Virus record (IMG/VR): IMGVR_UViG_3300020048_000019
Coordinates: 1-64,000 of that record
Length of the DNA: 64,000 bases
Strand: one strand, 5' to 3'
From: a virus
Lineage: Duplodnaviria; Heunggongvirae; Uroviricota; Caudoviricetes
Shown here: piece by piece, positions 24,563 through 47,169 of the stretch
How positions within the stretch are numbered: the stretch's first letter is position 1
Layout: each line of letters begins with the position of its first letter
The notes under the pieces: model-generated
The model's database searches: none
Seen by the model: only the letters and a program-made list of their open reading frames with translations
What the model was told of the DNA's origin: nothing
Position numbers and translations under genes: made by a program

Positions 24563-26050
24563 TTACGAGCATACCTTTATCCCGTATAACCGTTCAAATC
24601 TATCAGCGTCTGCACGATCATTGACCATGGGCTCGCCACGTATGTTTAATGAAGTATTAAGCAGCATAGGGCATCCTGTTAACACATACCACTTTTCTAA
24701 CAGTTCTCTAATTCCTGAACCATCTTTTGGTACAGTCTGGACACGACTAGTGCCATCAGCGTGAACGATAGCAGGAAATAACTCAGGATGGCGGCAACGA
24801 GCGATTGACTGCATATACCTATTGTTACTGAAACCGCGAGGCATATCAAAATGCTGATCAGCAAGTTCCTCCAGAATAACTGGCGCAAAGGGGCGGAACT
24901 GTTGTCTACGTTTGATTTCATTTACTTGATCCTTGATTTCTGGGCCTCTAGGGTCCGCTAACAAACTTCTGTTGCCTAGTGCTCTTGGACCAAACTCAGC
25001 CCTGCCGCTAGCAACACCCACAATACGGTCTGACAGAAGGCAGTCCAGAATGGCATGTACAGGGTAAGCACCGCCAATATCATGGCCCAGAAAAGCATTG
25101 TTCCAAGCAATCCTACCGCCATGAGCCAAGGCAGCGGCACCCAAGCTAGAGCCAGCATCACCAGGACAAGGCATAATCCAAATATTATCAAATAGCTCAC
25201 CAAGTCTCCTGTTGGCACTACAGTTCAGTGCAACACCACCTGCATACACCAAGTTCTTGCTCCAGCCGTGCCCTCGGGCACGATGCATCACATTCATTAT
25301 CAGATCTTCCACAAGATCCTGGGCACCTGCAGCAATGTCCATGTCACTGATATGACTCAGATACTTGATACTCAATCCTGTGTGCAGATTTTCCCGGAAC
25401 CGTAGTTCCCATTCATTTGCCACCAGGTCTTTCTTCATCAGCTCGCCAAAGCCACGTTCACCGTAAGCGGCCATGCCCATTAGAATGTATTCTTCGTCTA
25501 ATGGGCGTAGGCCAACGCGGCTAGTCGCTGCTGAATAAAAGAGTCCGATGCTATGCGGGTAACGCTGTGTCCACAGCTTCTGATAAGTTGCTTTACCTTT
25601 TGAATCATATTTTGCTCCCCAAATACTGATAGTATCAAATTCTCCAATAGCGTCAATTACTACTACTGTGGCACGATCAAAAGTGCTGGTCTGAAAGCCT
25701 CCTGCTGCATGACTTAAATGATGATTGTGCGTGCTTATGCGTGCTGGCAACTGGACCATGCCACTCAGCTGATCATTAATGATGCGTCTAGCACTTAACT
25801 TGTCCCACTCTATTCCCTGCCCCGAATACAGTTGTCGTAGCTGTTTCAGCCATGGACGTTCGTAATACGCAATATGATTTAATGCACCACCATAATTCTC
25901 GGCGTCTTGAATTAGTTCAAGACAAAGATTCTCATCGTTCTTTTTCTTGCTGTAACGTTCACTATGTCCGGCAAAAAGAATCTCACCGTCAGGTGATATC
26001 ACAGTGGCTGCTGCATCGTGGAACCCAGCACTAATACCCAGTATGCTCAT
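24563..26050 (-). CDS. NodU/CmcH-family carbamoyltransferase
   Basis: N-terminus MSILGISAGFHDAAATVISPDGEILFAGHSERYSKKKND is typical of NodU/TobZ/NovN carbamoyltransferases. Size 495 aa. Confidence 0.65.
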   Translation of the reverse strand: MSILGISAGFHDAAATVISPDGEILFAGHSERYSKKKNDENLCLELIQDAENYGGALNHIAYYERPWLKQLRQLYSGQGIEWDKLSARRIINDQLSGMVQLPARISTHNHHLSHAAGGFQTSTFDRATVVVIDAIGEFDTISIWGAKYDSKGKATYQKLWTQRYPHSIGLFYSAATSRVGLRPLDEEYILMGMAAYGERGFGELMKKDLVANEWELRFRENLHTGLSIKYLSHISDMDIAAGAQDLVEDLIMNVMHRARGHGWSKNLVYAGGVALNCSANRRLGELFDNIWIMPCPGDAGSSLGAAALAHGGRIAWNNAFLGHDIGGAYPVHAILDCLLSDRIVGVASGRAEFGPRALGNRSLLADPRGPEIKDQVNEIKRRQQFRPFAPVILEELADQHFDMPRGFSNNRYMQSIARCRHPELFPAIVHADGTSRVQTVPKDGSGIRELLEKWYVLTGCPMLLNTSLNIRGEPMVNDRADADRFERLYGIKVCS

Positions 26051-26149: not shown

Positions 26150-26356
26150 TTATGTCTTTCTAAATTTAGGTGTAGAGTCTGCACTGGCTTCATATTCCAG
26201 TCCTTGTAATACAGCAGCTAGATCTGCAAGAGATTTTTGATCCAGTCTGTGTCTAAACATTGTGGCAACTCCTGCGCCGTACACAAGATAAAACAGATCC
26301 TTGGGATCCTGCTCTAGTTGAATTTTAAATATTTCTTGCATTTTTTCCAGCGTCAT
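26150..26356 (-). CDS. hypothetical small protein (68 aa)
   Basis: ATGA overlap with the upstream gene. Confidence 0.35.
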   Translation of the reverse strand: MTLEKMQEIFKIQLEQDPKDLFYLVYGAGVATMFRHRLDQKSLADLAAVLQGLEYEASADSTPKFRKT

Positions 26357-27396
26357 TTCAATTCCTTTATTTGACGTGCAGGATAATCTGCATCAGTCCA
26401 GTTGTATGTATATGTAGCTTCGACGTTGCCAATTTGAATTTTATACACATCTAGATGCTGTGCAATCTGCGCCCAGATTGTGTTGTAATCCACAGTACCA
26501 AAGCTTTTGATCAAGTCTACTTGTGCTACCTTGGGATGCCCTATTGTCAAGCCTGGGTCTTCGGGATCAAACCCATTAACAATCAACCATTCACGAAACT
26601 CAGCTAGATTCTTTTGCTGCCATTCATATGCACCGGGATCACGTGCCCATTCTATATCAAAGTCGCCTGCTGCTAGAGTCTGTGATCTTAGAGTGCTGCT
26701 AGTCAGTTCGCCTAGCCTCGAGTCTCGCCCTTCGTCGGTAAACACTTCCCAATGAGCCTTGCCCACTGCTTTGTTCACACCCACATACACTCCGCCCAGC
26801 TGGCGATTTAGTGTATCAACCCCAAACAAGTCAAAGTCTTCAGGTTCTAGTTCAAAGCGCGGTGCATTCAACCAGCACATCAGCTGACTGGGGCGTCTCC
26901 ATTCGGGTGCTTGCACCGCTTTTCGCATGCTGAGCACCAGACTTTCCAGCTCGTGACACAAGAGATTTAGTTGACGAATATGCCAACGTGTATCTGCGTT
27001 GGCTTTGTTATAGTACAAACTCATGGCACCCGACACGCCTTGAAGGTCTTCAAACCAACGATGCAGCTGATTCATTCGCTCATGGTCAATGTCTAGGTCC
27101 GGCTGTATTACTGACTCCACTGTGTAAGCATCACAGTCAATACGATAACCCAGGTCAGCTCCATTAACAGCACCAATGCTGGTATTGATAGCCTGACAAA
27201 TGTATTCAGCGGTACGGTGACTTTCGGGCCAGCCCAACCAGCAGTAATTCTTTTCCAAATGTTTTTCATTTTTGATCAGGTCCTTTAGGGCAGCAAGCCA
27301 TTTTGAGCTGAGACTGTTGTTGTATACGTCAATATACACTGGCAACAAGCTGCCAGTTCTTGAACTGCGTAGTGTGATAATGATTTGCTTATTCAA
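26353..27396 (-). CDS. hypothetical protein (347 aa), probably TTG-initiated
   Basis: The only available start is TTG at 27394-27396. It is preceded by GGTGGA at 6-nt spacing and overlaps the upstream stop. Confidence 0.45.
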   Translation of the reverse strand: MNKQIIITLRSSRTGSLLPVYIDVYNNSLSSKWLAALKDLIKNEKHLEKNYCWLGWPESHRTAEYICQAINTSIGAVNGADLGYRIDCDAYTVESVIQPDLDIDHERMNQLHRWFEDLQGVSGAMSLYYNKANADTRWHIRQLNLLCHELESLVLSMRKAVQAPEWRRPSQLMCWLNAPRFELEPEDFDLFGVDTLNRQLGGVYVGVNKAVGKAHWEVFTDEGRDSRLGELTSSTLRSQTLAAGDFDIEWARDPGAYEWQQKNLAEFREWLIVNGFDPEDPGLTIGHPKVAQVDLIKSFGTVDYNTIWAQIAQHLDVYKIQIGNVEATYTYNWTDADYPARQIKELK

Positions 27397-28681
27397 TTTG
27401 ATTCCACCATTTTAGTACTGCAGGGCGCTGACTTAATATAGTGCTCATGTCAGTGGGGGCTGTGCGTATGCTTTCTAATTGTAACACACGAGCCTTGCCG
27501 CGAGCAAGCTCTTGTTGGTAAGTGTCAGGCCATTGTTCATCAAACGTGGGTCTTGACTTTAGCTGAGTTAGCACTGATCGCATACTAGACTCTGTGCAAC
27601 GGCCAATCAGTTCGTCCAACCAGGGTCCTAATAGGTGTCTAGGCAGCGCAAGTGGACTCATTGCAATACTGGGATCAAAGCTGAATATTACCTTGCTCAG
27701 TAACTCTACATCGTATTCGCGTGCTAGTGCTTGTATAGCATCTACTTCAGTCATGCCCGGCAGGGTCAGCGTAAAGTCTAAACGCATTTGTCTACGGTTT
27801 TTCTGGTGGGCAAGTCCGGCGGCAAAGTTGGTTCTGAATTGGTTGTAGTCAAGTCCGGTTCGGATGTACTCGCCAGTAGCTCCTGTGCCGTCGATGCTAG
27901 CGCATATCTGCCAGTCACGTATAGAATCCAAAATATCGCTATATAGATCACACCCACGAAAATTAACACGGCTAAGATTGGTATTGTACCTTGCATATAC
28001 TCGTCCTCCATCTCCTAATTCAACAATGCGCTGCATATAGCGCCAGTGCTGTTCATACATGAGCGGTTCTCCACCCACCCAGTACACTTCTTCTACCCTA
28101 TGCTGTTCTACAGCCTGAGCAAATTCCTGTTCAACTTGATTCTCTTGAAAGGCGTGAATCTGATGTCGTATATCGTTTCGCATCCAACTGTTTTTTGGAT
28201 CTGCCCAATTAACCATGTTGTTCTGCTTTTGTTCAGTTTCCCACGAGCTGGATAACATGTCCCCGCAAGTTCTACACTTGAAGTTACAAAGGTTGCTAAA
28301 CCTATAATCCCAGCTAACGGGCTGCATTGTGGTTGCTCCACTGCTATCAGTTGTGGCATAAACTTCCTGTAATTTGTGCGCAAACAAGTGTCCAAAGTAA
28401 TCCCTGTACACACTGGTATTTAACAGCTTTGAATTGCATACGTCACACTCGGGTAACGTTTCTCCTGCCATCATCCTGCGGCGCACTGACTTCATGTGGT
28501 CTGAGTTCCAGTGCGCTTCCAGAGTGACCGGAATATACTTGCCTGTGCCTGCTGCTGTGTCTATATACTGTTCAAAGTTTTGTGCGGGTTCGCGACTGGC
28601 ACAGCACAAGCGCCGTTCAGTTTGCGGACTCAGATACGTGTGAGTCCACGGTGCCAGACATAATGACTCAGGTTTATCCAT
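27389..28681 (-). CDS. radical SAM enzyme, paralog A1 (N-terminal Cys-rich module plus CNFKCRTC)
   Basis: CxxxCxxC in FSNLCNFKCRTCG. N-terminal CLAPW..CCASRE..RRRMMAGETLPECDVC. Start re-assigned to ATG 28681 (the track start is a TTG). Confidence 0.6.
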   Translation of the reverse strand: MDKPESLCLAPWTHTYLSPQTERRLCCASREPAQNFEQYIDTAAGTGKYIPVTLEAHWNSDHMKSVRRRMMAGETLPECDVCNSKLLNTSVYRDYFGHLFAHKLQEVYATTDSSGATTMQPVSWDYRFSNLCNFKCRTCGDMLSSSWETEQKQNNMVNWADPKNSWMRNDIRHQIHAFQENQVEQEFAQAVEQHRVEEVYWVGGEPLMYEQHWRYMQRIVELGDGGRVYARYNTNLSRVNFRGCDLYSDILDSIRDWQICASIDGTGATGEYIRTGLDYNQFRTNFAAGLAHQKNRRQMRLDFTLTLPGMTEVDAIQALAREYDVELLSKVIFSFDPSIAMSPLALPRHLLGPWLDELIGRCTESSMRSVLTQLKSRPTFDEQWPDTYQQELARGKARVLQLESIRTAPTDMSTILSQRPAVLKWWNQIE

Positions 28682-29687
28682 TAATGAACTCAAATAAAGG
28701 TTGCTGTATTGTGGTGTAGGCTAGTTCATTGGTTATACTGCGATCAAAGAACCTGTTTTGATTGTGGCGCAGCTTTTCCAATACTCTAGGTTGATCAACT
28801 CTAGCACAATCAAAACAGGTTACTTGTTGCACAACACAATCGATACGCTGCTGCCAGTCTGGAATGTTGTCATAGCTTTCGTCAAACAGCTCGGGAAATG
28901 TTTCAAATCCCTGTGAGCGCAGATAAGCAAGATTTCCTTGTGTTGATGCCATGAGTATAGGATGCTGCGCTGCTATGGGTTTGTAGCTCTTTTCGGTCAG
29001 GAACAAATGATCGTGTTGAGTAAGACTGTAGCCAGTTGTGGCTGCATAATCCACATAGGTTTCTACTGCCAGTGTAAATGCAGTGTTGTGCATCCAATCA
29101 GGATTGATATATCGTTGCTGCAATACAGGGTCGGGCCAATCATCGGGTAAATTTATTCCACGTGCTTGATAACTGTGAATACTGTCCCATAGCTGATTTT
29201 TCAGCTGATCAAATACATAGTCACGTTCAGTTCGTTGTTTGCCCAGGGTCAGAAAGAATTTCTTTTTAGGGGTTCTAGGTTGCCAAGCAATGTCGAGCAC
29301 GCCAGTTGTGGTCAATTGTGTCTGATCCAGGATCCAGTACCAGTAAGGCGTTGCAATAATTTTCACCCCTGGTAACAGATTAGGCTCGTGCCCTGATATA
29401 ATAAAACATCCTTGCCCCGGATGCTGTAAGAAATCTAATAGAATAGAATGCATTTTGAAATGAATGTAGTGTTCATTCTTGGCATCAAATATCACACGAT
29501 AGCCCTGTTGCAGGTGCAGCGGAATCATGTCATGATTCGGGCCGTACATGTCATAATAAAACACTGTACTCAGCGGGTATGTTGCTGCAGGATCAAAGAA
29601 TTCAAACGGCATGCCCTTGGGCACAATCATTCTTATCTTTTCCTGAGGTGCTCCCGTGGGATCGTAAACAAATACCAGCTTAGGCAT
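28674..29687 (-). CDS. fucosyltransferase-like (GT10-like) glycosyltransferase, paralog 4 of 5
   Basis: HDHLFLTEKSYKPIAAQHPILMASTQGNLAYLRSQGFETFPELFDESYD. Start re-assigned to ATG 29687 (the track start is a TTG). Confidence 0.5.
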   Translation of the reverse strand: MPKLVFVYDPTGAPQEKIRMIVPKGMPFEFFDPAATYPLSTVFYYDMYGPNHDMIPLHLQQGYRVIFDAKNEHYIHFKMHSILLDFLQHPGQGCFIISGHEPNLLPGVKIIATPYWYWILDQTQLTTTGVLDIAWQPRTPKKKFFLTLGKQRTERDYVFDQLKNQLWDSIHSYQARGINLPDDWPDPVLQQRYINPDWMHNTAFTLAVETYVDYAATTGYSLTQHDHLFLTEKSYKPIAAQHPILMASTQGNLAYLRSQGFETFPELFDESYDNIPDWQQRIDCVVQQVTCFDCARVDQPRVLEKLRHNQNRFFDRSITNELAYTTIQQPLFEFING

Positions 29688-30894
29688 TCTTTTGATACTC
29701 AAGTAACACGGCCATTTCAGGAGCAACTTGTGCGAAGTCTTGATTTCTTTTGCGATCTAGATCACGTATCTTCATCCTAGTCATCATGCCGTCGGTGCTG
29801 GCGCCACCATTCATGAAGTCTGAAATGCGCCCAAACTCCTTGGCATGTTCTTCAGGCACACCACAGGTTTTCAAGAACACGCTTAGTTCAGCTTTTGCTG
29901 TGTCTGGCAAGGTGGCAATACTAAAATACCAAGCATCGTGCATGATGTTCCAGTACACATAGTCAAAGCCCTGTTGCACAATCCATTGTGCCAATTGATC
30001 TAGATAGCGCACGTTGAACACGTTTACTGTACTGCAACACTGTAGCCGAATGTTGGCATGCTCAGATCGCAACTGGCGGAATCGTCCTAGGTTTTGTTCT
30101 ACTTCGGACCATATAGCGTTTGAGCGTTGGTATTCAAAGCGTGGACCTAGATCATCAATGCTGAAAGCAATTTCCACTGTTTTAAAATGGCTCCAGATCT
30201 CTGGACCACGATCGGGCCACTGCGTGCCATTTGTGTTGTAGTGTATTTCTACCTGATGCGCAATACCACGATCAATCATGCCTTGTAACATGTCAAAGTG
30301 CTGCTCAATCATGAACGGCTCACCGCCAGTAAACTCAATATAACGAATGTTGTTTAAATGATTGTCAATTTCTTGCCAGAATTGAGCATTTTCCTTGGGC
30401 CAAGCCCCGGCCCGTAGCATAGTATATGCATGTGACTTTTTCTGTTCTTCACGGGGCAAGAATGATATCTCTTCCGAAGCATATTGACTGCTACTCCAGC
30501 TGCCGCATATACGGCATTTTAAGTTGCAGATGTTGCCCAGTTTCAGATCCAGGAACATCAGGGGCTTGGCATCCACAGTCCACTCGGTGTCTGACAGAGT
30601 GTGCTTGAGGCGGTCCAGAGTATGCATGCGTTTGCTGGTACGCCCTGAACGTTCTTCATTCCAGCATTTGCGGCAGGTCTGCGGCTTTTCGCCAGCTAGA
30701 AACTGTTCACGTAGCTTGGTCATGCTTGAACTGTTTTGTATGCCAGCAAAGTCAGCACTCAGCAAACTGAACTTGTTACCAGCATCATCTACCAGTTCGT
30801 CGTCAGCTAGGCAACAAGGGCGCACTGTCCCCACGGGACTGGCTTCTAGGCTGATCCAAGGCAGTATGCAAAAGGTCTTGTGGGGGATGTTCAT
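29680..30894 (-). CDS. radical SAM enzyme, paralog A2
   Basis: LKLGNICNLKCRICGS. N-terminal FCILPW..PCCLADDE..FLAGEKPQTCRKCWNEE. Start ATG at 30894 forms an ATGA overlap with the upstream stop. Confidence 0.6.
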   Translation of the reverse strand: MNIPHKTFCILPWISLEASPVGTVRPCCLADDELVDDAGNKFSLLSADFAGIQNSSSMTKLREQFLAGEKPQTCRKCWNEERSGRTSKRMHTLDRLKHTLSDTEWTVDAKPLMFLDLKLGNICNLKCRICGSWSSSQYASEEISFLPREEQKKSHAYTMLRAGAWPKENAQFWQEIDNHLNNIRYIEFTGGEPFMIEQHFDMLQGMIDRGIAHQVEIHYNTNGTQWPDRGPEIWSHFKTVEIAFSIDDLGPRFEYQRSNAIWSEVEQNLGRFRQLRSEHANIRLQCCSTVNVFNVRYLDQLAQWIVQQGFDYVYWNIMHDAWYFSIATLPDTAKAELSVFLKTCGVPEEHAKEFGRISDFMNGGASTDGMMTRMKIRDLDRKRNQDFAQVAPEMAVLLEYQKNA

Positions 30895-32288
30895 GTCATG
30901 ATGTCCAAATAAGAAAAAAGGCTGCGCCAATTGGTGTTGCGTCTGCGATCCATTTCGTCTAGGTACACACGCAATTGCTCAATGTCATGATAATTATGAC
31001 TGGTTTGTTGCTGTAGTAGACTTTGCAGGCCCTGCATGCGCGGAATGGCCTCTTGTTGTTCCGCTGTGCGCAGTGGCATTGCTGCAAATATGCGTTCAAA
31101 GTCTTGTTGCCAGAAATCCCATGCATAGGTCTTGGGATGCTGAAACATGTGCAGGCCTGTGTAGAACTGAAAGTAATGGCCAATATGTTTGTGCTGGCTG
31201 TACTGATCTATTTTGCGTATGAGATCTGGCATGGTGCGCACCGTCATGGCTGTTACAGTTTGGTTAGCATTCAATCGCAGCCACGAGCCTTGCTCACTGG
31301 CCCAGGCAAAACGCTGTTCAAACTGATCAAGATTCAATCCCGAGCGCACAAATTCTTGTTCAGGGCCCCAGCAGTCTATACTGGCAGTGAGATCAAACAC
31401 TGCAATATTACCAGCAGCTTGTAGGTCACGTATGCGAGGAATGTATCTATTCCAGGCTGAGTCAGGCACATTGAGGTTGCTGAATATGCAGAACTGTAGA
31501 TTGGGACTGGGTCGGCGCTCAATGATATCCAGCACGCGAGTCATTAGTTCGTGCTGCAAAAAGGTTTCGCCACCCAGCAAATGCAAGCGCACTAGGCTTT
31601 GCACATTGCGATCCAGCCATTCCAGCCAACGTTCAAAGTATTCTTTTGCTGCTGCTGTGGGTTTGTGTATTACGGGAATGGTCACGTTACCTGAATCAAA
31701 GTCCCCATACTTGATATTTTCTGCTTCAATTTTACTACTAAGGTTGCCGTTACAGTACATGCAGCTTAGATTGCAGGTATTCTGTGCAAAGATCTCTACT
31801 ATGCGCGGAGTCACGTGTGTAGCAGTAGGATCGGTCAGCAGCTCAGGCGGTGTTAGCCCCCGTATGTCTAGATTGTGCTGGCGGTCACTCCAGCCACCTG
31901 CACGCTCAATATCGCCGCAGTATTCACAACCGCCACGTGGCCATTCTCCTGCCAGCATGAGTTCACGATCAGCAATCTTTTTGGGCAGGTTATGAAAGTT
32001 CTCCATTTGATCTAGTTCAAACGGCACAGGGTTTACTCTGTGACAACTGGCACTACTAAGCTGATTGAGATATATAGTACTCCAGGTCCATTTGGATTGA
32101 CACGCTGTGGCTGTGTTGATTGGAAACCTTTCACCTTGTGCCAACTGCTGCTGTGTAAATTCTGCTATTTCTTGTCGTATGTGCGGCAATGCTGCTTGCA
32201 CTCCTGCAATATAAGCCAAGTAGCTGGGCCAGTCTGGACCAGCAAACACAGCATAGTCATCAGCAGTGACATAATGAGCTAGATTCAT
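30891..32288 (-). CDS. radical SAM enzyme, paralog B' (B-type N-module with extra N-terminal extension)
   Basis: AQNTCNLSCMYCNG. CQSKWTWSTIYL..SCHRVNP..LMLAGEWPRGGCEYCGDIE. An internal ATG at 32288 gives an ATGA overlap. The track start at 32324 is also an ATG. Confidence 0.55.
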   Translation of the reverse strand: MNLAHYVTADDYAVFAGPDWPSYLAYIAGVQAALPHIRQEIAEFTQQQLAQGERFPINTATACQSKWTWSTIYLNQLSSASCHRVNPVPFELDQMENFHNLPKKIADRELMLAGEWPRGGCEYCGDIERAGGWSDRQHNLDIRGLTPPELLTDPTATHVTPRIVEIFAQNTCNLSCMYCNGNLSSKIEAENIKYGDFDSGNVTIPVIHKPTAAAKEYFERWLEWLDRNVQSLVRLHLLGGETFLQHELMTRVLDIIERRPSPNLQFCIFSNLNVPDSAWNRYIPRIRDLQAAGNIAVFDLTASIDCWGPEQEFVRSGLNLDQFEQRFAWASEQGSWLRLNANQTVTAMTVRTMPDLIRKIDQYSQHKHIGHYFQFYTGLHMFQHPKTYAWDFWQQDFERIFAAMPLRTAEQQEAIPRMQGLQSLLQQQTSHNYHDIEQLRVYLDEMDRRRNTNWRSLFSYLDIMT

Positions 32289-33547
32289 TTCAAGGCTCGC
32301 AATTCTGGAATCACGTCCAAACATGATTCATTTCTGATAGCATCAAGCTCGTGTGTTTTGCGCCAGAACGTGTCCAGCAGCTGAGTGTTGTCTGTTGCGT
32401 TCATAAAGGTAATGGCTGATTCAAAGCCTTGTGTGGCACGGCCCAGGTGATCTTGTGGCTGCAGCCAAGATATGTGCTCGCGCCATTTGGCTGTTAATTC
32501 GGCCTTGTACTCACTGGTAGCAATGTCTATTCTGTAGTGTGCAGGATCTTGAAGGATGTTTACGTTCAAATCCTGTGCTCTAATAAGGCCACGCTGAACC
32601 CAGCTACGATGAAAGTCCGGCAAGCTCCAAGCATTCATTATACTGAGTGTAGGCGAGATGTAAAAGTCCACATCAGGACACACACGCATCATTTCTGCAC
32701 GATTCAGCTCCACTGTGCTCCAGTTAGTGCCTTTTCTAATATACTCAGCTCTGGCGCCACGATCGTCTAGACTTGCACCCACTGCCACACTGTTGAATTG
32801 TTTCCAGTATTCGAATACACTCCGACCCTTTAGATCAGTATGTGTGAAGTTTGTGTTGTAGATCAAGCGCACATCAAAGCGCTTTCTACGCACCAGCTCA
32901 TCTAGAATACGATAATGTTCTTCCATGAGCAAGGGCTCGCCACCAGCAAAGTAGATCTGTTCCACATAGTCTAGATGCGGTTCTAGCTGTGTCCACATGT
33001 CAGTTTCAGTACGGCCTGCGTAGTTAAGAACAGTGTTGCGTTCTTTCCAGTCCCCGCCTGCCAGTCGGGCTTGGTCCTGATACCATTGTGAACTAAAGAT
33101 ATGCCCACAGCTTCTACACTTTAGATTGCACAAGTTACTGAAACGAATGTCCCAGTAAGTCATTTCAAACGGCGTGGCTTCTAGTTTTTTTACCTGGTGA
33201 CCGTGATGTTTGTTTGCACTCTTGCGGCCCGAAAAGAAACCTGACTCTTCTTGCTCATAACAGCGGCCACATGCAGCATTGGGTGTTTCACTCAGCATGT
33301 CTGCACGTAGTGATTGCATGGGTTTATCCTGCCAGATTTCTGCCAGTGTATTTTTCCTACAGTTGCCCACTTGCCCCACGCCCATTTCAGCATGGCAGCA
33401 AGGATATGCTTCGCCTGTGGGATAAGCATGCAAATGGATCCAGGGATAGATGCAAAAGGTCTTTGAGTCCTGTAACAGGAATTGTTCACGCTGTGTGAGC
33501 TCTGTGGGCTTTACTAAATCTGTGCTGTTATATTTGTATTGACTCAT
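32285..33547 (-). CDS. radical SAM enzyme, paralog A3
   Basis: FSNLCNLKCRSCGH. N-terminal FCIYPWIHL..PCCHAEMG..ACGRCYEQEE. Confidence 0.6.
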   Translation of the reverse strand: MSQYKYNSTDLVKPTELTQREQFLLQDSKTFCIYPWIHLHAYPTGEAYPCCHAEMGVGQVGNCRKNTLAEIWQDKPMQSLRADMLSETPNAACGRCYEQEESGFFSGRKSANKHHGHQVKKLEATPFEMTYWDIRFSNLCNLKCRSCGHIFSSQWYQDQARLAGGDWKERNTVLNYAGRTETDMWTQLEPHLDYVEQIYFAGGEPLLMEEHYRILDELVRRKRFDVRLIYNTNFTHTDLKGRSVFEYWKQFNSVAVGASLDDRGARAEYIRKGTNWSTVELNRAEMMRVCPDVDFYISPTLSIMNAWSLPDFHRSWVQRGLIRAQDLNVNILQDPAHYRIDIATSEYKAELTAKWREHISWLQPQDHLGRATQGFESAITFMNATDNTQLLDTFWRKTHELDAIRNESCLDVIPELRALK

Positions 33548-34928
33548 ACCATTCTTTTAATCTGGGAAACGTTGTGACAAAGTCAAGCCCACGGCGTTGA
33601 TCATATTGTGTAAAGAACCTGCGAAAGTCTTTTTCAAGATCATTGGAATTGAATTCTTTTTGCTGATCGTCAAAGGTTAATGGTTCCATGGTTATATATG
33701 CTCCACGATGCGGCTGCTCAACAGAACACAGATATCTTACAAAACTGGTCAGCAAGTCCTGTTCTTTTGTTGTTAGCCACTTGGAGTTACGTTCTACACA
33801 TGCTGCAATTTCATCACTGTACATTTGTCGCAGCGGCCGGGGCAAGATCAACACACTTTGGAATGTGGGCCAACGCACATAGCTCATGTAAAGATTAAAC
33901 AGCCTTGGACGGGCTTGTTGCTTTAGTGTGACAATCCAGTCGACAAATTCAACTAGGCCGTCAATGCTCACAGCACTCATTGTGGTCAGCAACTGTATAG
34001 ACACAAACAATTGGCTGTGCATCAGTGTGTGCATGTTTTGTGTCCACTGTGCCCAATCCAGACCGTGACGCACATATTCGCCTTTATCGCCCAGACCCTC
34101 GGCGCTGACAGCAATAGACCAGCTCCACTGTGAGCCCTTGATACGATCCAAAAAGCGTTGCAGCGTTTCGGCATCATAGCTGAGATTTGTGGTCAAGTGT
34201 ATGGTGCAGCCCGTGGGATTGGGGCGGTCATGAAGCCAGTCTAGTAGTCGCCAAAAGTGCTGACTCATCATGGGCTCGCCACCGGTGATTCTGAGTATTT
34301 TTACATGTTGGCCCAGTTCCTGATCCCACCACTTAAAGAACGCATCAGCATAGGGATTTTCTTCACGTACACCGTAAAGGAACTTGCCAGTGTCCACATA
34401 ATGATTTCGTTCATCTGTTACTAGGCCTTGATATGCGCCATTTTGTTTTATGTCTCTGCTCCAGCTTGAGCTAATGTCTGGACAGCAATAACTACATGCT
34501 AGATTACAGGTTCTATCAATGCCCAATTCTAGATACTTGGGAATTACTCGTTGGTCAGACGGTGCGTCAAATACTTGTTGCAGTTCGTCTTCGGTAGCCA
34601 TTTGGCTGTACCAGGTCCTATGTGCCAGTTCCTCTGACTTTTGATCTTCTACTACCCAGCAAAATTGGCAGTCTAGCGGACGCTCACCTGCTTGCATCAT
34701 GGCACGTTCTTGCTTTTTCTTGGCAGTGTTGTGCAGTGCAGACAGGTCCTGGGCTATTTCATCAAGATTGCTCACATGCGGAGGATTGTGGTGGCAACTG
34801 GCTGTCCACCCATTCCACAGCCATATACTAGAGTGAAACCATTTGGCTCCACAAAAGCTAGTGCTCTTGGCATCCAGTACACGAGCCTTGTACTCGTGCA
34901 TTATACGCAGATTTTCAGGAAAGGCCAT
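33528..34928 (-). CDS. radical SAM enzyme, paralog B1
   Basis: DRTCNLACSYCCP and ITGGEPMM (GGE). N-terminal FCGAKWFHSSIWL..SCHHNPPH..MMQAGERPLDCQFCWVVED. No C-terminal Cys cluster, so no SPASM domain. Confidence 0.6.
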   Translation of the reverse strand: MAFPENLRIMHEYKARVLDAKSTSFCGAKWFHSSIWLWNGWTASCHHNPPHVSNLDEIAQDLSALHNTAKKKQERAMMQAGERPLDCQFCWVVEDQKSEELAHRTWYSQMATEDELQQVFDAPSDQRVIPKYLELGIDRTCNLACSYCCPDISSSWSRDIKQNGAYQGLVTDERNHYVDTGKFLYGVREENPYADAFFKWWDQELGQHVKILRITGGEPMMSQHFWRLLDWLHDRPNPTGCTIHLTTNLSYDAETLQRFLDRIKGSQWSWSIAVSAEGLGDKGEYVRHGLDWAQWTQNMHTLMHSQLFVSIQLLTTMSAVSIDGLVEFVDWIVTLKQQARPRLFNLYMSYVRWPTFQSVLILPRPLRQMYSDEIAACVERNSKWLTTKEQDLLTSFVRYLCSVEQPHRGAYITMEPLTFDDQQKEFNSNDLEKDFRRFFTQYDQRRGLDFVTTFPRLKEWYESIQI

Positions 34929-36258
34929 TGTACCATTCTATTAGATCATTTTTCCCATTGAATGCTTGCGCAAAGTTCTTGTTTCGTCGTTGATCGTACT
35001 GTGAAAAAAACTGTGAAAAATCATTCAATAACTTGGTCTGGTCAAAAGCTTCTGAGTGAGGAGTGTCAACCACATCCAGGTAGTCAATTAGTCTCTGTAC
35101 ATGATCTAGTTCATGCTCATGAAACAAGGGATTGTGTTGACTGCGATAGTGCAATTCTTTTAGTTCAGCAGCATAGCGGGCACGTAGTGAGTGTGGCATT
35201 ACCAGCGCACTTTGAAAGCTGGGGAATCTAAGAATGTTTAAAGTGTAGCTCACAGCATCACGTCCGTAACGTTGTTTTAGGTCCAGTAGATAGCGCAAGT
35301 GATCACTCAAGCTGGGCAAGCACAGCGCATTGATTGTGCCCATAAAGTGTAGTGTACGCACACGCTTGCTGGCAAGAATCTTTTCCACGTTGGCTTGCCA
35401 TGCCAGGTAGTCTAAGCCATCACGAATGTATTCAGCCTGGGCGCCCACAGCTTCTTGACTGGTGTAGATATCCACATCAAGTCCTTGTACACTGTCCAAC
35501 AACCTATCTACGTCTATTTCTGCACCCAGGTTGCTGTTGATCGCAAGGCGTGTAGTGCTCTTGCCTGTATTGTTCTTGAACCAGTCAATGAGTCGCCAGG
35601 TGTGGTGGGACATGAGGGGCTCTCCTCCTGTGATACGAAGCTCTTGAAGGGTACGGTGTAGATCAGTCTCCCACCACTGAAAGAATGCCTCAACATAAGG
35701 ATTGGCTTGCCCGTGTTTATATAACTGAGCAGACTCATGAGCATGAGTGAAGTGATTCCGACCATCGCTAACCAAGCTAGTATAGGGTCCGTTATTTCTA
35801 ATATCTTTAACCCATGTTGTACTAAATGCAGGGTTGCAGTAGCTGCAAGCAAACTGACAAGTACGATCAAAAGCAATCTCCAAAGTACGGAGGTCCACGT
35901 CATCAGTTGCGGGTGTGTTGAATGCTTCATGCAGAGCCTTGATAGGGTAGATTTTTGATTTGTACACACGGTCGCTCACAGCATCACGGCCCATGTCTTC
36001 TATTTTCCAGCAGTATTCACACCCTGCAGGACGTTCGCCTGCAATCATTCTTGCACGATCTGCTTTCTTTTCAGGAGTATTGTGCAGCAGCCTAGGGTTG
36101 GCAACAACCTTATCTCGGTCTACCAAATGGGCTGGCGGATGGTGGCAGCTGGTGCTCATGCCGCTACCAAGCCAAATGGTAGCATTAAACCATTTTGCAG
36201 CGCAAAAACTGGGGCTCAGGGTATCCAAGACTTCTTGGCGAAATTCAAGATCGTTCAT
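34915..36258 (-). CDS. radical SAM enzyme, paralog B2
   Basis: DRTCQFACSYCNP and ITGGEPLM. N-terminal FCAAKWFNATIWL..SCHHPPAH..MIAGERPAGCEYCWKIED. Confidence 0.6.
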   Translation of the reverse strand: MNDLEFRQEVLDTLSPSFCAAKWFNATIWLGSGMSTSCHHPPAHLVDRDKVVANPRLLHNTPEKKADRARMIAGERPAGCEYCWKIEDMGRDAVSDRVYKSKIYPIKALHEAFNTPATDDVDLRTLEIAFDRTCQFACSYCNPAFSTTWVKDIRNNGPYTSLVSDGRNHFTHAHESAQLYKHGQANPYVEAFFQWWETDLHRTLQELRITGGEPLMSHHTWRLIDWFKNNTGKSTTRLAINSNLGAEIDVDRLLDSVQGLDVDIYTSQEAVGAQAEYIRDGLDYLAWQANVEKILASKRVRTLHFMGTINALCLPSLSDHLRYLLDLKQRYGRDAVSYTLNILRFPSFQSALVMPHSLRARYAAELKELHYRSQHNPLFHEHELDHVQRLIDYLDVVDTPHSEAFDQTKLLNDFSQFFSQYDQRRNKNFAQAFNGKNDLIEWYNGLS

Positions 36259-37357
36259 TTAGGTATTGTTCTAATAGAGTGGGCAATGCAGCCCGTTGCT
36301 GCTGATTGTATTCCACCAGGTGTTGTTGATTGTATTTACAGATGTTACGACTGGCTTCCCAGAAATCACTAGCACCTTGATCCACAATCCAAGCCACTGT
36401 TTCTATTATACGATCTATTCTATCATGTGGGCTATCTATTAGATCAAATGACTCGTCAATCAAATGACCAAACGTTCTAAACCCTGCATTGCGTAAAGAT
36501 CTATAGTAGCCAGGATTAGCAGCTACTACAAATGGGTGTGCCATTAAAATAGGCTTCCAGATCTTTTCTGTTCTAAACGTGTGCGGATAATCAAATATAG
36601 TTTCTGATACCAAGCTAAACCACGAGTCTGTATAGCAGCGCGGATTAACAATAGCATCGCCCCAGGTGTTGTCAAACAGCTGGTGTTTGACAAAGCCACC
36701 ATTGGTATACAAACTAGGCTTTAGATTTTCACGAGCACGATCTATTTCGTATTCTGGGGGCAACAAGCGTATAGGTTCTAGCTTGGCAGTTTCTAACTCA
36801 GACGTAAATGCCATTTCTACAGTGCTTCCTAGGTTGGTCCACAGTGCATGTTCCAGTGCACCTAGTTCACGCAGGCCATCTATTAGATACTTGCGATGAG
36901 GGCGCAAGCGTCCATTTAGGAAAAGAAACGTATAGGGCCTGTAATCTTTGTGGTCCAGAGCCGCTTGTACCTGTGCAGCTTGATTCTCTGTGTATTCTAC
37001 TATGTTGCTGAAGTAACAGTCTGTCTTGCAGTAGCGTATACCGGGCTCTAGATCGCCAGACGTCAACAAACCAATAAAGCCTTTTGCAATCATGTCATGT
37101 ATGCGCAAGCGTTTAAGCTGTAGTAGAATAGTTTCGGATCCTTCTGCAGGGTTTGAAAACACTATCTGTCCCGGATGTAGCAGGGCCCAGGCATTTATTT
37201 CAGCCCAGTGCTGTTTCAGCAGCACACGCCCCACAATATACACAGCATCAGAATCTAGTTCAGCAGGCCACTGCCAGAATGACCCATCGGCATAAGGCTT
37301 TAGCAGGTCCCAGGTCTCGGCCCATTCATCCACATGGATCTTATGTGGTCCTAGCAT
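36245..37357 (-). CDS. fucosyltransferase-like (GT10-like) glycosyltransferase, paralog 5 of 5
   Basis: ETIFDYPHTFRTEKIWKPILMAHPFVVAANPGYYRSLRNAGFRTFGHLIDESFD. Confidence 0.5.
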   Translation of the reverse strand: MLGPHKIHVDEWAETWDLLKPYADGSFWQWPAELDSDAVYIVGRVLLKQHWAEINAWALLHPGQIVFSNPAEGSETILLQLKRLRIHDMIAKGFIGLLTSGDLEPGIRYCKTDCYFSNIVEYTENQAAQVQAALDHKDYRPYTFLFLNGRLRPHRKYLIDGLRELGALEHALWTNLGSTVEMAFTSELETAKLEPIRLLPPEYEIDRARENLKPSLYTNGGFVKHQLFDNTWGDAIVNPRCYTDSWFSLVSETIFDYPHTFRTEKIWKPILMAHPFVVAANPGYYRSLRNAGFRTFGHLIDESFDLIDSPHDRIDRIIETVAWIVDQGASDFWEASRNICKYNQQHLVEYNQQQRAALPTLLEQYLNERS

Positions 37358-38759
37358 AGTAAGCGCACTCCTCCCAGAATGATTGCATTTCGGGAAAGGT
37401 CTTTAAAAAATCTGTACCACGGCGCTGATCATGTTCATTAAAGAAACGATAGAAGTCGCCTTTGCGCTGTGCAACTACATCGGCGGGTAGATTCTTTCCG
37501 TCACGCATCCATTCTATGTCACGATCCCAGCGCTGGATTTCATAGTCCTTGAATCCTTTAAAAGGCTCCTCGGGCTTTTCAATTTGACGCAACATCCAGG
37601 CCCAGATCAATTCCAGCTGATCCACATAGCTTTCGGGCAGCAATTGCAAGCTTTGCCAAGCAGGTTCGCGTAGTACAGGAGTATCAAACCACACTCGTTG
37701 ATATGTTTCACTGTAGGTTTTACGCAGGCCCAGGATACCTGCCAACAAGTAGCCCACGCCAGTAACGCTGAGATTGTTCATTGTGACAATAAATGTGATG
37801 CTGCTACGGCCGGGGATTTCTGTTAGAAATTGATTTACTCTGTCCCATACCAGATCAAAGTTCAGGCCATTTCTAATGTATTCTGCTTGATCGCCCCAGG
37901 TGTCCAAGCTAACATACTGCATAAAATGTTCTAGGTTGCCTTCTTGGCACAGTTGTTTTACATAGCCTAGGTACTTTTGCCATGACTTTTCATCTACTGA
38001 GAAGTTTGACGTCACATTTAGGTGCAGCTTGGGACTGGGGTTGGCCAACACATAGTCAAATACTCTGTAGGTATTCCGATCCAGCAAGGGCTCGCCACCA
38101 GTCATTCTAAAGTGTTCAAGCTCAGGGTACAGCTTAGGCCACCACTGCCAAAATGCTTCAACATAGGGATTGTGTTCCCTAGCGGGAATAACACGCCTAG
38201 CCCCTGTAAAGTGTTCAGGAGCATTATGTGGTGTGGAAGTAGCATAAGCGCCATCACGGTTAGCTTCGTCGGCCCAGCTAGAGCTAAACTGGGGACTGCA
38301 ATAACTGCACTTGAGGTTACAAGCATTGTTAAAATTAACTTCAACATAGCTGGGAATGACATCATCTTCTAGTCCTGTTGAATTCTTTATCCGTTCAAAA
38401 TCCACAGCAGCCCATGACTCGCCTGATCTGTAATGGCGATCACTCAGCTGATCATTTGCTTCCATGTTCCAGCAATAGCTACACTCTGCAGGCTTTGTAC
38501 CAGCTAGCATGGCCACACGCTGCTGTTTCTTGTGCTCAGTGTTGTGTAGTGCTGAGGGATTGCGACCAATGTCTTCTATGCTGATCTTGTGCAAGGGAGG
38601 ATGATAACATGAGTTATTGAGTCCCGTGGGCAAGTGTAAACTAACCTGTTTCCATTTGGCCAAACAAAGAGCAGGGCCTAGCTCTGCTCTCATTTGTTCA
38701 GCACTGCTAAGAAACTTGGATTGTGTTCCTACAGACTCATCACCTTTGTTTTGTGTCAT
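37341..38759 (-). CDS. radical SAM enzyme, paralog B3
   Basis: NNACNLKCSYCSP and MTGGEPLL. N-terminal LCLAKWKQVSLHL..SCYHPPLH..MLAGTKPAECSYCWNMEA. An internal ATG at 38759 makes an ATGA overlap. The track start at 38780 is also an ATG. Confidence 0.55.
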   Translation of the reverse strand: MTQNKGDESVGTQSKFLSSAEQMRAELGPALCLAKWKQVSLHLPTGLNNSCYHPPLHKISIEDIGRNPSALHNTEHKKQQRVAMLAGTKPAECSYCWNMEANDQLSDRHYRSGESWAAVDFERIKNSTGLEDDVIPSYVEVNFNNACNLKCSYCSPQFSSSWADEANRDGAYATSTPHNAPEHFTGARRVIPAREHNPYVEAFWQWWPKLYPELEHFRMTGGEPLLDRNTYRVFDYVLANPSPKLHLNVTSNFSVDEKSWQKYLGYVKQLCQEGNLEHFMQYVSLDTWGDQAEYIRNGLNFDLVWDRVNQFLTEIPGRSSITFIVTMNNLSVTGVGYLLAGILGLRKTYSETYQRVWFDTPVLREPAWQSLQLLPESYVDQLELIWAWMLRQIEKPEEPFKGFKDYEIQRWDRDIEWMRDGKNLPADVVAQRKGDFYRFFNEHDQRRGTDFLKTFPEMQSFWEECAYYARTT

Positions 38760-39352
38760 AATGCTCGTTGATCTTTCCATTGTTCAGCTTGGATTTCAGC
38801 TGGCTCAGTTGATTCTAATTCAGCAAATCGTTGTGTCAACTGGTCAATATTCAATATGTTCTTGGATGAATAAGGACTTTTTTTTGTGCGAGTAATCACT
38901 GATGGTATGTTCAACTGTTGACAAACCACTTCACTGCGCCCAATAAAGTCTTCAAACTTCAAGTAATGTCTATTTGTGTAGTGAGTTAATGCATGGTGCG
39001 CACGGTGCCAGTTTTTGTGCCAGTTGTGCTTTTGTTCGAATATATCTAGGTCTGCTACAAATGGCTGTCCATTTCCGCTATATCTAAACCATTCATTGTA
39101 CTGTTCGCAGATCATTGCACTGACAATTTCACTAAACAAATCATTACGAGTCACGTGTATAACCTGCAGGTCAGGCTGATCGGGCAACTGCAACTGTGCG
39201 TCATGACTGTGATACACCATGGATTCTGCAGTGGCGGGCAAAGGTTCTTGATTGCTCATGACCAGTCGCATGCCAAGGCTTTGTGCAATAGTTAGTGCTA
39301 CAAAGATACTGCCGCTACGCCCAGCGCTGCATACTAGGTATTTTACTGTCAT
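38756..39352 (-). CDS. Stf0-like sulfotransferase (PAPS-dependent)
   Basis: 5'-PSB-like VCSAGRSGSIFVA and 3'-PB-like HVTRNDLFSEIVSA (RxDxxxS). Size 198 aa. Confidence 0.45.
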   Translation of the reverse strand: MTVKYLVCSAGRSGSIFVALTIAQSLGMRLVMSNQEPLPATAESMVYHSHDAQLQLPDQPDLQVIHVTRNDLFSEIVSAMICEQYNEWFRYSGNGQPFVADLDIFEQKHNWHKNWHRAHHALTHYTNRHYLKFEDFIGRSEVVCQQLNIPSVITRTKKSPYSSKNILNIDQLTQRFAELESTEPAEIQAEQWKDQRAL

Positions 39353-39939
39353 GATCCAATTTCCAAATATAAGTTTAATCCATGTTGTATATGTTGTTGG
39401 ATTTTGAAATCTGCAGGCAAGGCTGCATCAACTTGTTCCAACGCCTGCTTGTTATTATAGCGCAAACGATGATAGATCATATGTGTTATGGGCATACAGG
39501 TTATTAAATTTCCATGTGGCTGCAACCATGATTGATACCATCTGACTGTGTTTGCGTACTCAATCGGCGTTTTGTATTTGGTCCACTGCTCGCCCAACAT
39601 AACCACTGTGGAATAAGTGTCAGTTACTCTGGGGAAAATACCTGGTGCAATTTCGGGTGTCCAAGGAGCCATTACTGTAGCAAAACTGTCCAATTCAACC
39701 CAACGTGCAACAGGATGGATTAGTTCTACCGCAGGAGCAAAGCTATCAATTGCAGCGATCTTGCCTGGCCGCACACACTGTTGAACAAACTGTGTCAATG
39801 TGCCCGGTCGGCCATGACGTGCTGCTGCATATTCTTGTGCTAGAGGGTGACAACGTTTGTAAAAGCGCCATTGCTCTCGCCAGCTCCGCTGACTCACTGC
39901 TGACATATCAGTTTGTTTAACCACGCTTGAAGTAGGCAT
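39349..39939 (-). CDS. hypothetical protein (about 196 aa)
   Basis: The track start at 39957 is a TTG. First in-frame ATG at 39939. ATGA overlap at the 3' end with the sulfotransferase gene. Confidence 0.4.
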   Translation of the reverse strand: MPTSSVVKQTDMSAVSQRSWREQWRFYKRCHPLAQEYAAARHGRPGTLTQFVQQCVRPGKIAAIDSFAPAVELIHPVARWVELDSFATVMAPWTPEIAPGIFPRVTDTYSTVVMLGEQWTKYKTPIEYANTVRWYQSWLQPHGNLITCMPITHMIYHRLRYNNKQALEQVDAALPADFKIQQHIQHGLNLYLEIGS

Positions 39940-40408
39940 AAGTTGTAGGATGTACAAAATTAAAATACTGCCCCTGATCTAGGCAACTGTGTCTTTTTAT
40001 TTCAGTGTAATCAGGCAAGCTAGTAGCAACGATATTCAGCAAGTCTTGATCATAGTCATCAGTTAGATTGGGCCATGTTTGTTGAGTAGTCACAGTGTAT
40101 TTGTTGATAGCAACATAGACCCAGGCAGGCTGATATTTAACTGAGTTATGCTGTAAGGTTTTTGTGAATTGTTCCAGTACTGTTACAGGATTAGGCAGCA
40201 AGTAAGCCAGCATAAACTTGCTGTCAAAACATGTGCTGCGCACCTTACAATTGGGCAATCGATCAGCAAAATACCCCTGGTCAGGATCACCCTTTAAAGC
40301 CAATTGCAGAACCTGTTGTTCAATACAAAAGTCAATTAGTTCTTGGTCCTGAGCGATTGTACCTTGGTTGTTGTAGTACAGTGATAATTGCCATTGTCGA
40401 GCATTCAT
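39917..40408 (-). CDS. hypothetical protein (163 aa)
   Basis: ATG at 40406-40408 overlaps the upstream TAA by 1 nt (TAATG). The track start is a TTG. Confidence 0.4.
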   Translation of the reverse strand: MNARQWQLSLYYNNQGTIAQDQELIDFCIEQQVLQLALKGDPDQGYFADRLPNCKVRSTCFDSKFMLAYLLPNPVTVLEQFTKTLQHNSVKYQPAWVYVAINKYTVTTQQTWPNLTDDYDQDLLNIVATSLPDYTEIKRHSCLDQGQYFNFVHPTTYAYFKRG

Positions 40409-47150: not shown

Positions 47151-47169
47151 GGTCTTTTATTTACCTTGA

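Follow-up and report, generated by a model that had tools for sequence, protein, structure and literature searches.

Tandem radical S-adenosylmethionine enzymes with an N-terminal twitch module in a jumbo-phage locus, and their possible connection with glycan tailoring

Why should a virus carry seven related radical S-adenosylmethionine (SAM) enzymes in a single run of genes, and on what would these enzymes act? The question is raised by positions 27389-38780 of the viral record IMGVR_UViG_3300020048_000019 in IMG/VR, of which we analyzed positions 1 to 64,000 (64,000 nucleotides, hereafter called the window). The seven genes lie on the minus strand and are named here R1 to R7 in the order of their coordinates (Table 1). 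In enzymes of this superfamily, an iron-sulfur cluster held by the CxxxCxxC motif reductively cleaves SAM, and the 5'-deoxyadenosyl radical thus formed abstracts a hydrogen atom from the substrate. The results of our analysis indicate that the seven genes are functional and long-diverged members of one radical-SAM family, in which a twitch module precedes the catalytic core.

The seven open reading frames (ORFs) were first described in a sequence-only reading of the window, and the ORF listing places them at the coordinates claimed there. Their CxxxCxxC strings had been read exactly (CNFKCRTC, CNLKCRIC, CNLSCMYC, CNLKCRSC, CNLACSYC, CQFACSYC and CNLKCSYC, found at residues 123-172), and the GGE motif attributed to them is invariant in all seven paralogs. 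Besides the core cysteines C140, C144 and C147 and the G202-G203-E204 motif (R4 numbering), a seven-way alignment retains C32, C51, C93 and C96 as invariant residues, in agreement with the four-cysteine N-terminal module that had been proposed to be common to all of them. Past the core there are just one to three scattered cysteines, none of which is conserved, so that the C-termini lack cysteine clusters as claimed. The architecture is consequently the same in every paralog, namely an N-terminal four-cysteine twitch module followed by the CxxxCxxC/GGE core and a helical C-terminal region, even if pairwise identity is only 18-38%. An all-versus-all comparison upholds the division into two subfamilies, A comprising R1, R2 and R4 (PW...CC) and B comprising R5, R6 and R7 together with R3 (KW...SC[HY][HR]); R3 is the outlier of the R5/R6/R7 group, and R1 joins R2 and R4.

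All seven proteins belong to a family that has already been named. They score 180-383 bits against the NCBIfam model NF033640 ('N_Twi_rSAM', twitch domain-containing radical SAM protein), the curated cutoff of which is 170 bits, and they align with approximately positions 1-398 of its 398 positions, the full-length hidden Markov model (HMM) E-values ranging from 6e-53 to 2e-114. The Pfam SPASM model PF13186 (cutoff 21.5 bits) runs end to end over residues 32-97 of R4 (E 5.7e-11, 43 bits) and is above its cutoff also on residues 9-78 of R2 (24.1 bits), R1 falling below it with 17.2 bits. The pattern C-x9-15-G-x4-C, followed by CxxC about 40 residues on, is present in R2, R4, R5, R6 and R7 (five of the seven), as well as in 95 of 98 representatives of the wider family that have a single module; in R1 and R3 the cysteine spacing is retained but the glycine is missing. 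We take this pattern to be the first of the two halves of the SPASM signature. A search of PDB sequences with a profile additionally produced a weak alignment of the module with the C-terminal twitch region of BtrN (profile positions 35-93 to BtrN residues 182-242, E 0.034), while the core matched that of BtrN separately (E 0.0047), the two pieces being in permuted order.

Given the NF033640 match, the Pfam SPASM match, the cysteine signature and the BtrN alignment, the N-terminal module is, as far as sequence can tell, a twitch-type (SPASM-half) domain that has been permuted to the N-terminal position. SPASM and twitch domains are described as C-terminal extensions, of which the twitch holds one auxiliary cluster, ligated in BtrN by four cysteines (PMC9012708); in the array this canonical placement is replaced by a location 40-60 residues upstream of CxxxCxxC. 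Two statements of the sequence-only reading have to be abandoned in the light of these data. The proteins cannot be set apart from SPASM or twitch enzymes, since Pfam SPASM covers the module of R4 and R2 and all seven exceed the NF033640 cutoff, and the module is not without a place in known families, since the N-terminal twitch arrangement is what defines the curated NF033640. The same reading would have given way to a well-characterised family in which the module was already described; the family found is indeed named and curated, but it comes without biochemical characterisation.

Of note, the string 'AGEKPxxCxxCW' in the module ('M.AGE.P..C..CW', for instance at residues 84-97 of R4) resembles the 'TGEKPYxCxxC' of C2H2 zinc-finger linkers. 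A profile of the N-terminal module by itself returned such linkers from the PDB with E 0.16-1.7, and we have discarded this likeness to zinc fingers as convergence or chance.

The family is of considerable size. An exhaustive profile search returned 20,157 clusters at 50% identity with E<=1e-3 and 6,068 with E<=1e-30, R4 having more than 7,700 homolog clusters, and members are found in bacteria as well as in phages such as KVP40, K566 and RsoM2USA. Natural fusions of two or three N_Twi modules are frequent (790-1,203 aa; representatives P0191-P0236), a protein-level mirror of tandem arrays.

The array is organized as a single translationally coupled operon of seven paralogous radical-SAM enzymes, a claim of the sequence-only reading that is supported by the overlapping genes and the HMM matches. 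Thirteen consecutive genes overlap, from U202 through an ORF of 68 aa, and five of the junctions are of the ATGA type, confirming that several had this form; the overlap range previously given (8-44 nt) does not hold, as supported start codons give 4-20 nt. Two genes without radical-SAM features (28674-29687 and 36245-37357) interrupt the run of seven.

To follow the array across viral relatives, an HMM built from the seven paralogs was run against 84 related loci. At least one relative is present in 181 IMG/VR viral contigs, the best 80 of the 181 being 73-86% identical to R4 and several having a length of 340-355 kb, and the exact R4 protein was found on metagenome contigs. The core R7-R6-R4-R2-R1 is maintained in fixed order, with 60-86% identity, in about 80 viral loci, which include every one long enough to hold it. 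Orthologs of R6 occur in all related loci (63-86% identity) and those of R7 in essentially all related viral loci (65-80%). R3, R5 and further divergent copies are variable: R3 is found in a minority of the related loci, in varying positions and with 37-71% identity, and R5 in few of them only (30-53%), there being four to eight radical-SAM copies per locus. The backbone common to these loci reads U606-U320-U317-U256-GT2like320-[variable]-R7-Gb-R6-[R5]-R4-[R3]-R2-[Ga/epimerase/R3]-R1-U347-carbamoyltransferase. All seven cysteines are kept in 445 of the 457 homologs of the related loci, and the CxxxCxxC and GGE residues of the core in 454-455 of them. The non-synonymous divergence (dN) is 0.14-0.28 and the synonymous divergence (dS) is saturated, dN/dS being about 0.08. 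Because the cysteines are so widely retained, dN/dS is low and the order of the core is conserved, we conclude that the array genes are functional and under purifying selection, with a conserved core and exchangeable cassettes. We have not seen reported either this five-paralog core in a jumbo-phage clade or the partnership and fusion of the family with transferase-like proteins that is described below.

What do these enzymes modify? On balance we lean towards radical tailoring of a glycan or sugar, because of the recurrent pairing with the gene here called GT2like320, the fusions with glycosyltransferases and the sugar enzymes in the neighborhood. An R7-like radical-SAM gene has a GT2like320 homolog directly upstream of it in RsoM2USA (gp350/gp349, gp348 being a second copy of GT2like320 type) and in the distant loci L088, L091 and L097. 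Fusions are found in three distant family members: P0219 joins the radical-SAM module to a C-terminal Glycos_transf_2 domain (E 5.6e-17), whereas the additional domain is N-terminal in P0290 (GT2-like/Glyco_transf_7C, E 5e-10) and in P0246 (a GT2like320 homolog, E 2e-18).

The gene contexts of distant members point in the same direction. Within 20 kb of the unrelated locus L088 (JGI 3300048881, 28.9 kb), eight radical-SAM genes are interleaved with four genes of glycosyltransferase family 2 (GT2) and accompanied by an amine-oxidase-like flavoprotein, an arrangement denser than that of the window. Another unrelated locus (L089) has a glycosyltransferase, the P0290 fusion and then a 761-aa homolog of the G family (see below) and UDP-glucose dehydrogenase, and in the bacterial locus L091, identified as such by LptF/G and RodZ, the two family members are accompanied by DegT, an epimerase and two genes of GT2 type, the epimerase/DegT pair being the same as in the window. 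A GT2 gene follows a family member at 6 nt in L098, and in a polysaccharide locus on an Azospirillum plasmid a homologous carbamoyltransferase is found beside an N_Twi-like radical-SAM gene. In the window, the island lies beside baseplate and tail-fibre genes, its radical-SAM cassettes are variable and sugar enzymes are present, the sole signal of glycosyltransferase type being the weak GT-A-like one at 40408-41370.

The window contains an eighth radical-SAM gene at 5645-7144, as the sequence-only reading had noticed (Pfam Radical_SAM, E 3.5e-15; weak B12-binding match, E 0.006). A homolog of it (8514-10004, E 3e-23) overlaps the beginning of an N_Twi radical-SAM gene of two modules in L095, a bacterial contig of 2.6 Mb with an otherwise housekeeping context. 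This suggests a recurrent partnership of B12-type and N_Twi-type radical-SAM enzymes. A B12-class radical-SAM gene is present also in the Azospirillum polysaccharide locus.

Several results weigh against a glycan or sugar as substrate. The sample of contexts is small (seven informative loci, not randomised, the contigs of P0300, P0310 and P0246 being too short for context) and glycosyltransferases are common genes. P0243 is fused to a subtilase fragment and P0196 to TPR repeats, and L093 offers a mixed context with a gene of glycosyltransferase family 1 and a weak PqqD match. The glycosyltransferase signal of GT2like320 is itself weak: Pfam Glyco_tranf_2_3 gives E 0.005 and hhalign against real GT2 domains a probability of 15% (E 0.0017), the protein carrying a 'DGD' motif, and a profile of its family found only ankyrin and de novo repeat noise in the PDB. 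For the accompanying G family, no fold or family was detected with Pfam, PHROGs, NCBIfam, a Pfam scan run singly on 50 homologs or a PDB profile search. Full-text literature searches on NF033640 or on phage radical-SAM enzymes found nothing on the function of the family, nor a demonstrated reaction for any member of it. Maturases of ribosomally synthesised and post-translationally modified peptides (anSME, CteB, SuiB and TvgB) match the array proteins as well as BlsE does, by Foldseek and profile comparison. More generally, the evidence does not tell whether the target is a glycan of the virion or of the host surface, DNA or a free metabolite.

The structural comparisons behind the penultimate point were made with an AlphaFold2 model of R4 (25-sequence alignment; predicted local distance difference test, or pLDDT, 82.8; predicted template-modelling score 0.82), in which C32 and C51 flank a beta-hairpin and the C-terminal domain is helical. 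Neither Foldseek nor a profile search of the PDB returned a close solved structure for R4, and phmmer found no match for it among PDB sequences. The Foldseek matches in the PDB are distant relatives with template-modelling (TM) scores of 0.3-0.45, BlsE being the best (E 3.6e-5) and anSME, CteB, SuiB, GDGT-MAS, viperin, MoaA and EpeE being others; the top sequence-profile match was TvgB (8vpo), a cyclopropyl synthase aligned over the core alone (E 3e-9). In favor of a glycan substrate, BlsE, a radical-SAM enzyme of the twitch type, has a sugar nucleoside as its substrate. The whole R4 fold is recovered in BFVD, with TM 0.7-0.86, from many uncultured Caudovirales proteins and from the Vibrio phages KVP40 and phi-pp2.

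These same comparisons could also be read as signs of protein or peptide modification, in which the array would introduce cross-links, epimerisations or oxidations into phage structural proteins (the tail fibre or the giant 5,023-aa protein) or into a peptide. Most SPASM/twitch enzymes act in this way, the closest solved relatives anSME, CteB, SuiB, TvgB and EpeE all modify peptides, and the array adjoins virion genes; the subtilase-fragment and TPR fusions and the weak PqqD match at one distant locus would also fit. We consider such a function unlikely nevertheless. Pfam and NCBIfam scans found no RRE or PqqD domain in any paralog, the overlaps between the genes leave no space for a precursor gene inside the array, and the recurrent partners of the family are sugar enzymes and glycosyltransferases.

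The resemblance to BlsE, an enzyme of blasticidin S biosynthesis, and the weak match to BtrN raise yet another possibility, that of a phage pathway for a small molecule of aminoglycoside or nucleoside type. The gene set indeed resembles that of aminoglycoside clusters, with a BtrN-type twitch enzyme, a DegT aminotransferase, a TobZ-type carbamoyltransferase and glycosyltransferases, and a radical-SAM enzyme is among the 'antibiotic synthesis genes' on which a paper on cyanophages speculates (PMC12801897). Since O-antigen loci typically contain these same families, genes for a cyclitol synthase, resistance or export were not detected and the variability of the cassettes and their location near tail-fibre genes fit surface glycans better, we judge this pathway to be very improbable.

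The least probable of the readings considered here, in our opinion, is modification of nucleic acids or nucleotides, either as hypermodification of DNA with sugars or as nucleotide chemistry of the viperin kind. Weak, core-only similarity to viperin and MoaA, the presence of ThyX and other nucleotide genes in the window and the frequent glycosylation of DNA by phage glycosyltransferases (discussed in PMC7029224) could be cited for it. However, the paralogs reach only 16-27 bits, over the core alone, with the viperin family model NF038283 (cutoff 180), the array is about 12 kb away from ThyX on the opposite strand and is contiguous with structural genes, and the bacterial homologs reside in polysaccharide loci.

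If a glycan is modified, its location has still to be considered. A glycan of the virion appears most likely because the island is on the same strand as, and directly downstream of, the genes for the baseplate, the giant virion protein and the tail fibre. Alternatively, the same tailoring could be directed to the envelope polysaccharide of the host (lipopolysaccharide or capsule), thereby blocking superinfection or aiding release, as has been proposed for the glycosyltransferase-rich host-recognition clusters of pelagimyophages (PMC7029224) and as the occurrence of bacterial homologs in cell-surface polysaccharide loci would allow. We regard the host envelope as a somewhat unlikely target. Among the stretches scanned with Pfam, NCBIfam and PHROGs, where many genes have no match of any kind, there is no gene for a flippase, polymerase or lipid carrier, and the island is co-oriented and contiguous with late structural genes; neither point is decisive.

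Returning to the tailoring of a glycan or sugar, a possible mechanism can be outlined as follows. Each enzyme would hold, from what is known of the superfamily, a SAM-cleaving [4Fe-4S] cluster on CxxxCxxC and, by the same family knowledge, a second, predicted [4Fe-4S] cluster, ligated by the four cysteines that are invariant in the N-terminal module (C-x~18-C-x~41-C-x2-C) and are the sequence evidence for it. The auxiliary cluster would be fully ligated by cysteine, with no open iron site, and by analogy with BtrN would most likely take up the second electron (PMC9012708). Judging from the gene contexts, the substrates would be sugars or a growing glycan rather than peptides, and the net outcome an oxidised, epimerised or rearranged sugar. 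GT2like320, the G-family proteins, the dehydratase/aminotransferase pair and the carbamoyltransferase would be partners through which the glycan is assembled, aminated and carbamoylated, different paralogs presumably acting on different positions or residues of it, and the five-gene core with its swappable cassettes may behave like a diversifying locus of the O-antigen type. The least certain step is the last, in which the product would decorate the host-recognition apparatus of baseplate and tail fibre, the alternative being a remodelled glycan of the host envelope.

A broader proposal, which we put forward as doubtful but possible, is that N-terminal-twitch enzymes form a large unrecognised class acting on glycans as dedicated partners of GT-A-like transferases, to which they are sometimes fused, and that the phage clade uses five to eight of them for a virion glycan, heavily modified by radical chemistry and borne on baseplate and tail fibres. 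To our knowledge, there is no description of a phage that glycosylates its virion by radical chemistry. N_Twi enzymes make up a very large family that is abundant in environmental phages, with no reaction found on record, and the partnership and fusions provide a functional hypothesis that can be tested, the more so as the cultured carriers RsoM2USA, KVP40 and K566 render the module experimentally tractable. If true, this hypothesis would add a new radical chemistry of carbohydrates and would explain why, in large aquatic phages, variable radical-SAM cassettes pile up beside the genes for tail fibres. If the glycan reading is wrong, the array still is a clean case of paralog expansion in a viral operon.

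The features of the window are collected in Table 1.

Table 1. Positions and properties of the array genes and of other features of the 64,000-nt window
Feature	Position	Strand	Properties
Eighth radical-SAM gene	5645-7144	+	Probably B12-binding class (Pfam)
NAD-dependent sugar epimerase/dehydratase and DegT/DnrJ/EryC1 sugar aminotransferase	15732-17773	+	Pfam E 1.7e-45 and 5.5e-51
U862	17742-20330	-	862 aa; no family match; C-terminal ~third homologous to GT2like320 and to the N-terminal domain of P0246
NodU/CmcH/TobZ-type carbamoyltransferase	24563-26050	-	Pfam Carbam_trans_N E 1.9e-36, Carbam_trans_C E 1.7e-46; end of conserved block
68-aa ORF	26150-26356		Only small ORF nearby
U347	26353-27396	-	Always follows R1; no family match
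R1	27389-28681	-	N_Twi_rSAM paralog, subfamily A, core; NF033640 277.2 bits; kept across related loci
Ga	28674-29687	-	Second G-family paralog, accessory, between R2 and R1; 337 aa per gene call on the identical contig L001
R2	29680-30894	-	N_Twi_rSAM paralog, subfamily A, core; NF033640 332.1 bits; kept across related loci
R3	30891-32288	-	Divergent N_Twi_rSAM paralog, accessory cassette; NF033640 180.3 bits
R4	32285-33547	-	N_Twi_rSAM paralog, subfamily A, core, most conserved copy; NF033640 382.7 bits
R5	33528-34928	-	N_Twi_rSAM paralog, subfamily B, accessory cassette; NF033640 270.5 bits
R6	34915-36258	-	N_Twi_rSAM paralog, subfamily B, core; NF033640 273.5 bits
Gb	36245-37357	-	G-family member; always in the R7/R6 interval
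R7	37341-38759	-	N_Twi_rSAM paralog, subfamily B, core; NF033640 307.7 bits
U198, U202, U165	38756-40414	-	Three small accessory genes between the GT-A-like gene and R7; closest relatives only; no family match
GT2like320	40408-41370	-	Conserved partner of R7-type radical-SAM enzymes; possibly a GT-A-fold (DxD) transferase
U256, U317	41647-43357	-	Conserved weak paralogs upstream of GT2like320; homologs in the same position in RsoM2USA
Adjacent virion module	44553-63968	-	PHROG matches, FG-GAP repeats, tblastn; on the strand of the array
Tail-fibre-like protein	44553-46373	-	PHROG
Virion structural protein of 5,023 aa, single ORF	47170-62241	-	PHROG; FG-GAP repeats
Baseplate wedge subunit	62241-63968	-	PHROG E 7e-105

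The G family has five paralogs of about 340-390 aa in the window (2402-3568 on the minus strand, 20329-21456 and 21434-22618 on the plus strand, 28674-29687 and 36245-37357 on the minus strand), the two on the plus strand following U862, and metagenomes contain over 5,000 clusters of its homologs, all labelled 'hypothetical'. Its members have an invariant C-terminal motif, TEKxxKPI...G...L...G..TF...D...D, and we take the string 'ETxF...LTEKxFKPI' to recall the 'FENS..YVTEK' motif of glycosyltransferase family 10, as a lead only. The AlphaFold2 model of Gb was poor (pLDDT 52) and all its Foldseek matches had E>4. A DUF6071 protein also lies within the island. The 68-aa ORF was considered as a conserved precursor peptide and rejected, being present in only 3 of the 84 related loci.

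A scan for promoters gave 28 sites versus 33.3 in shuffled sequence, hence no excess, and a scan for terminators 26 sites versus 16.7 ± 3.3 in shuffles. The sole convincing terminator hairpin on the strand of the array is at 43564-43545 (minus strand; 8-bp stem with five GC pairs and a T-rich tail), within the 211-nt gap upstream of U317 and beside a promoter-like site. Because of this hairpin and promoter-like site upstream of U317, a transcription unit may begin at about 43.4 kb and end at about 24.5 kb.

The window is viral, as had been assumed, in view of its baseplate wedge gene, of the relatives in IMG/VR contigs and of a baseplate akin to that of jumbo phages of the Rak2/Atu_ph07 type. 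By tblastn, the baseplate protein and the giant protein share 27-37% identity with their counterparts in Rak2-like phages, Atu_ph07, SCTP-2, RsoM2USA and PA5oct, and the genome is that of an uncultured jumbo myovirus, a distant relative of Rak2, Atu_ph07 and RsoM2USA in a widespread clade reaching about 350 kb. The array and window positions 1-24000 had no megablast match among 50,697 phage records. The 5,023-aa protein, which may be a VrlC-like giant baseplate protein, is about 28% identical over its first ~2,150 residues to the 'virion structural protein' of PA5oct-like phages and Atu_ph07 and has matches also in Synechococcus and Prochlorococcus phages. The left arm of the window (383-15120, plus strand) encodes an HD-domain protein, a T4-type RNA ligase, a MoxR-type AAA ATPase, an SPFH/Band 7 protein and ThyX, as well as a DUF2201 metallopeptidase/VWA protein labelled 'HNH endonuclease' by PHROGs; there are no tRNA genes within the 64 kb. 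Two further contigs, L003 and L004 (NZ_JBBAKG010000001/3; 183 kb and 148 kb), carry a radical-SAM array with 81-84% identity to R4 and are binned in EUL_031, a 'Haliscomenobacter sp.' metagenome-assembled genome that is a GTDB species representative. They probably are phage contigs that were mis-binned in this genome, possibly a hint to the host.

How does the array compare with known systems? The sequence-only reading considered so many radical-SAM enzymes extraordinary for a virus, a view that precedents do not sustain. A T4-like environmental viral genome has 12 radical-SAM genes (PMC5332604), pelagimyophages have cassettes of glycosyltransferase and radical-SAM genes in a tail-fibre 'host recognition cluster' (HRC) beside a giant baseplate protein (PMC7029224), K566 has four tandem members and the fold is common among phage proteins in BFVD, including those of KVP40. 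The HRC of pelagimyophages and cyanomyophages (PMC7029224) is likewise a variable island adjacent to the giant baseplate protein and tail fibres, with sugar-nucleotide enzymes and radical-SAM cassettes that differ between close relatives. Its phages, however, are T4-like and of 130-250 kb, whereas the phage of the window is a Rak2/Atu_ph07-like jumbo phage of a clade with genomes of up to about 350 kb; the HRC is purely variable, whereas the clade of the window has a conserved five-gene radical-SAM core, and the likeness concerns radical-SAM enzymes in general.

Closer in family terms are the Vibrio phages K566 and K567, with four tandem N_Twi radical-SAM genes (three K566 proteins scoring 154-202 bits), and the cultured RsoM2USA (344 kb), which has one family copy, gp349 (E 7e-105 against the array HMM). 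All three resemble the array in having unannotated genes interleaved and differ in their fewer copies and in an identity of only ~21-25% to the window proteins (tblastn with R4). K566 is without a GT2like320 homolog, whereas RsoM2USA has the module U317-U256-x-GT2like320-rSAM-GT2like in common with the window (L087, positions 215949-221946, gp347-gp353, all annotated as hypothetical). This module lies ~18 kb from the baseplate wedge gene of RsoM2USA.

Among enzymes of known structure, BlsE (cytosylglucuronate decarboxylase) and the SPASM peptide maturases anSME, CteB and SuiB have the partial TIM-barrel core in common with R4 (E 3.6e-5 to 2.5e-4). Unlike the array proteins, they have their auxiliary domain at the C-terminus; the identity is 13-19% in a match restricted to the core, and no RRE accompanies the array proteins. 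BtrN, the butirosin 2-deoxy-scyllo-inosamine dehydrogenase and archetypal twitch enzyme, resembles them in its single auxiliary [4Fe-4S] cluster with four cysteines, in its carbohydrate-like substrate (PMC9012708) and in the weak alignment of the N-terminal module. Its twitch domain is C-terminal in a protein of ~250 residues, whereas the array proteins have theirs at the N-terminus and comprise 404-472 residues with a helical C-terminal domain; moreover, BtrN is absent from the 50 Foldseek matches listed and its sequence similarity is marginal. Compared with NF033640 at large, finally, the array is unusual in its seven tandem copies, in its five-gene core and in its viral setting adjacent to tail-fibre genes.

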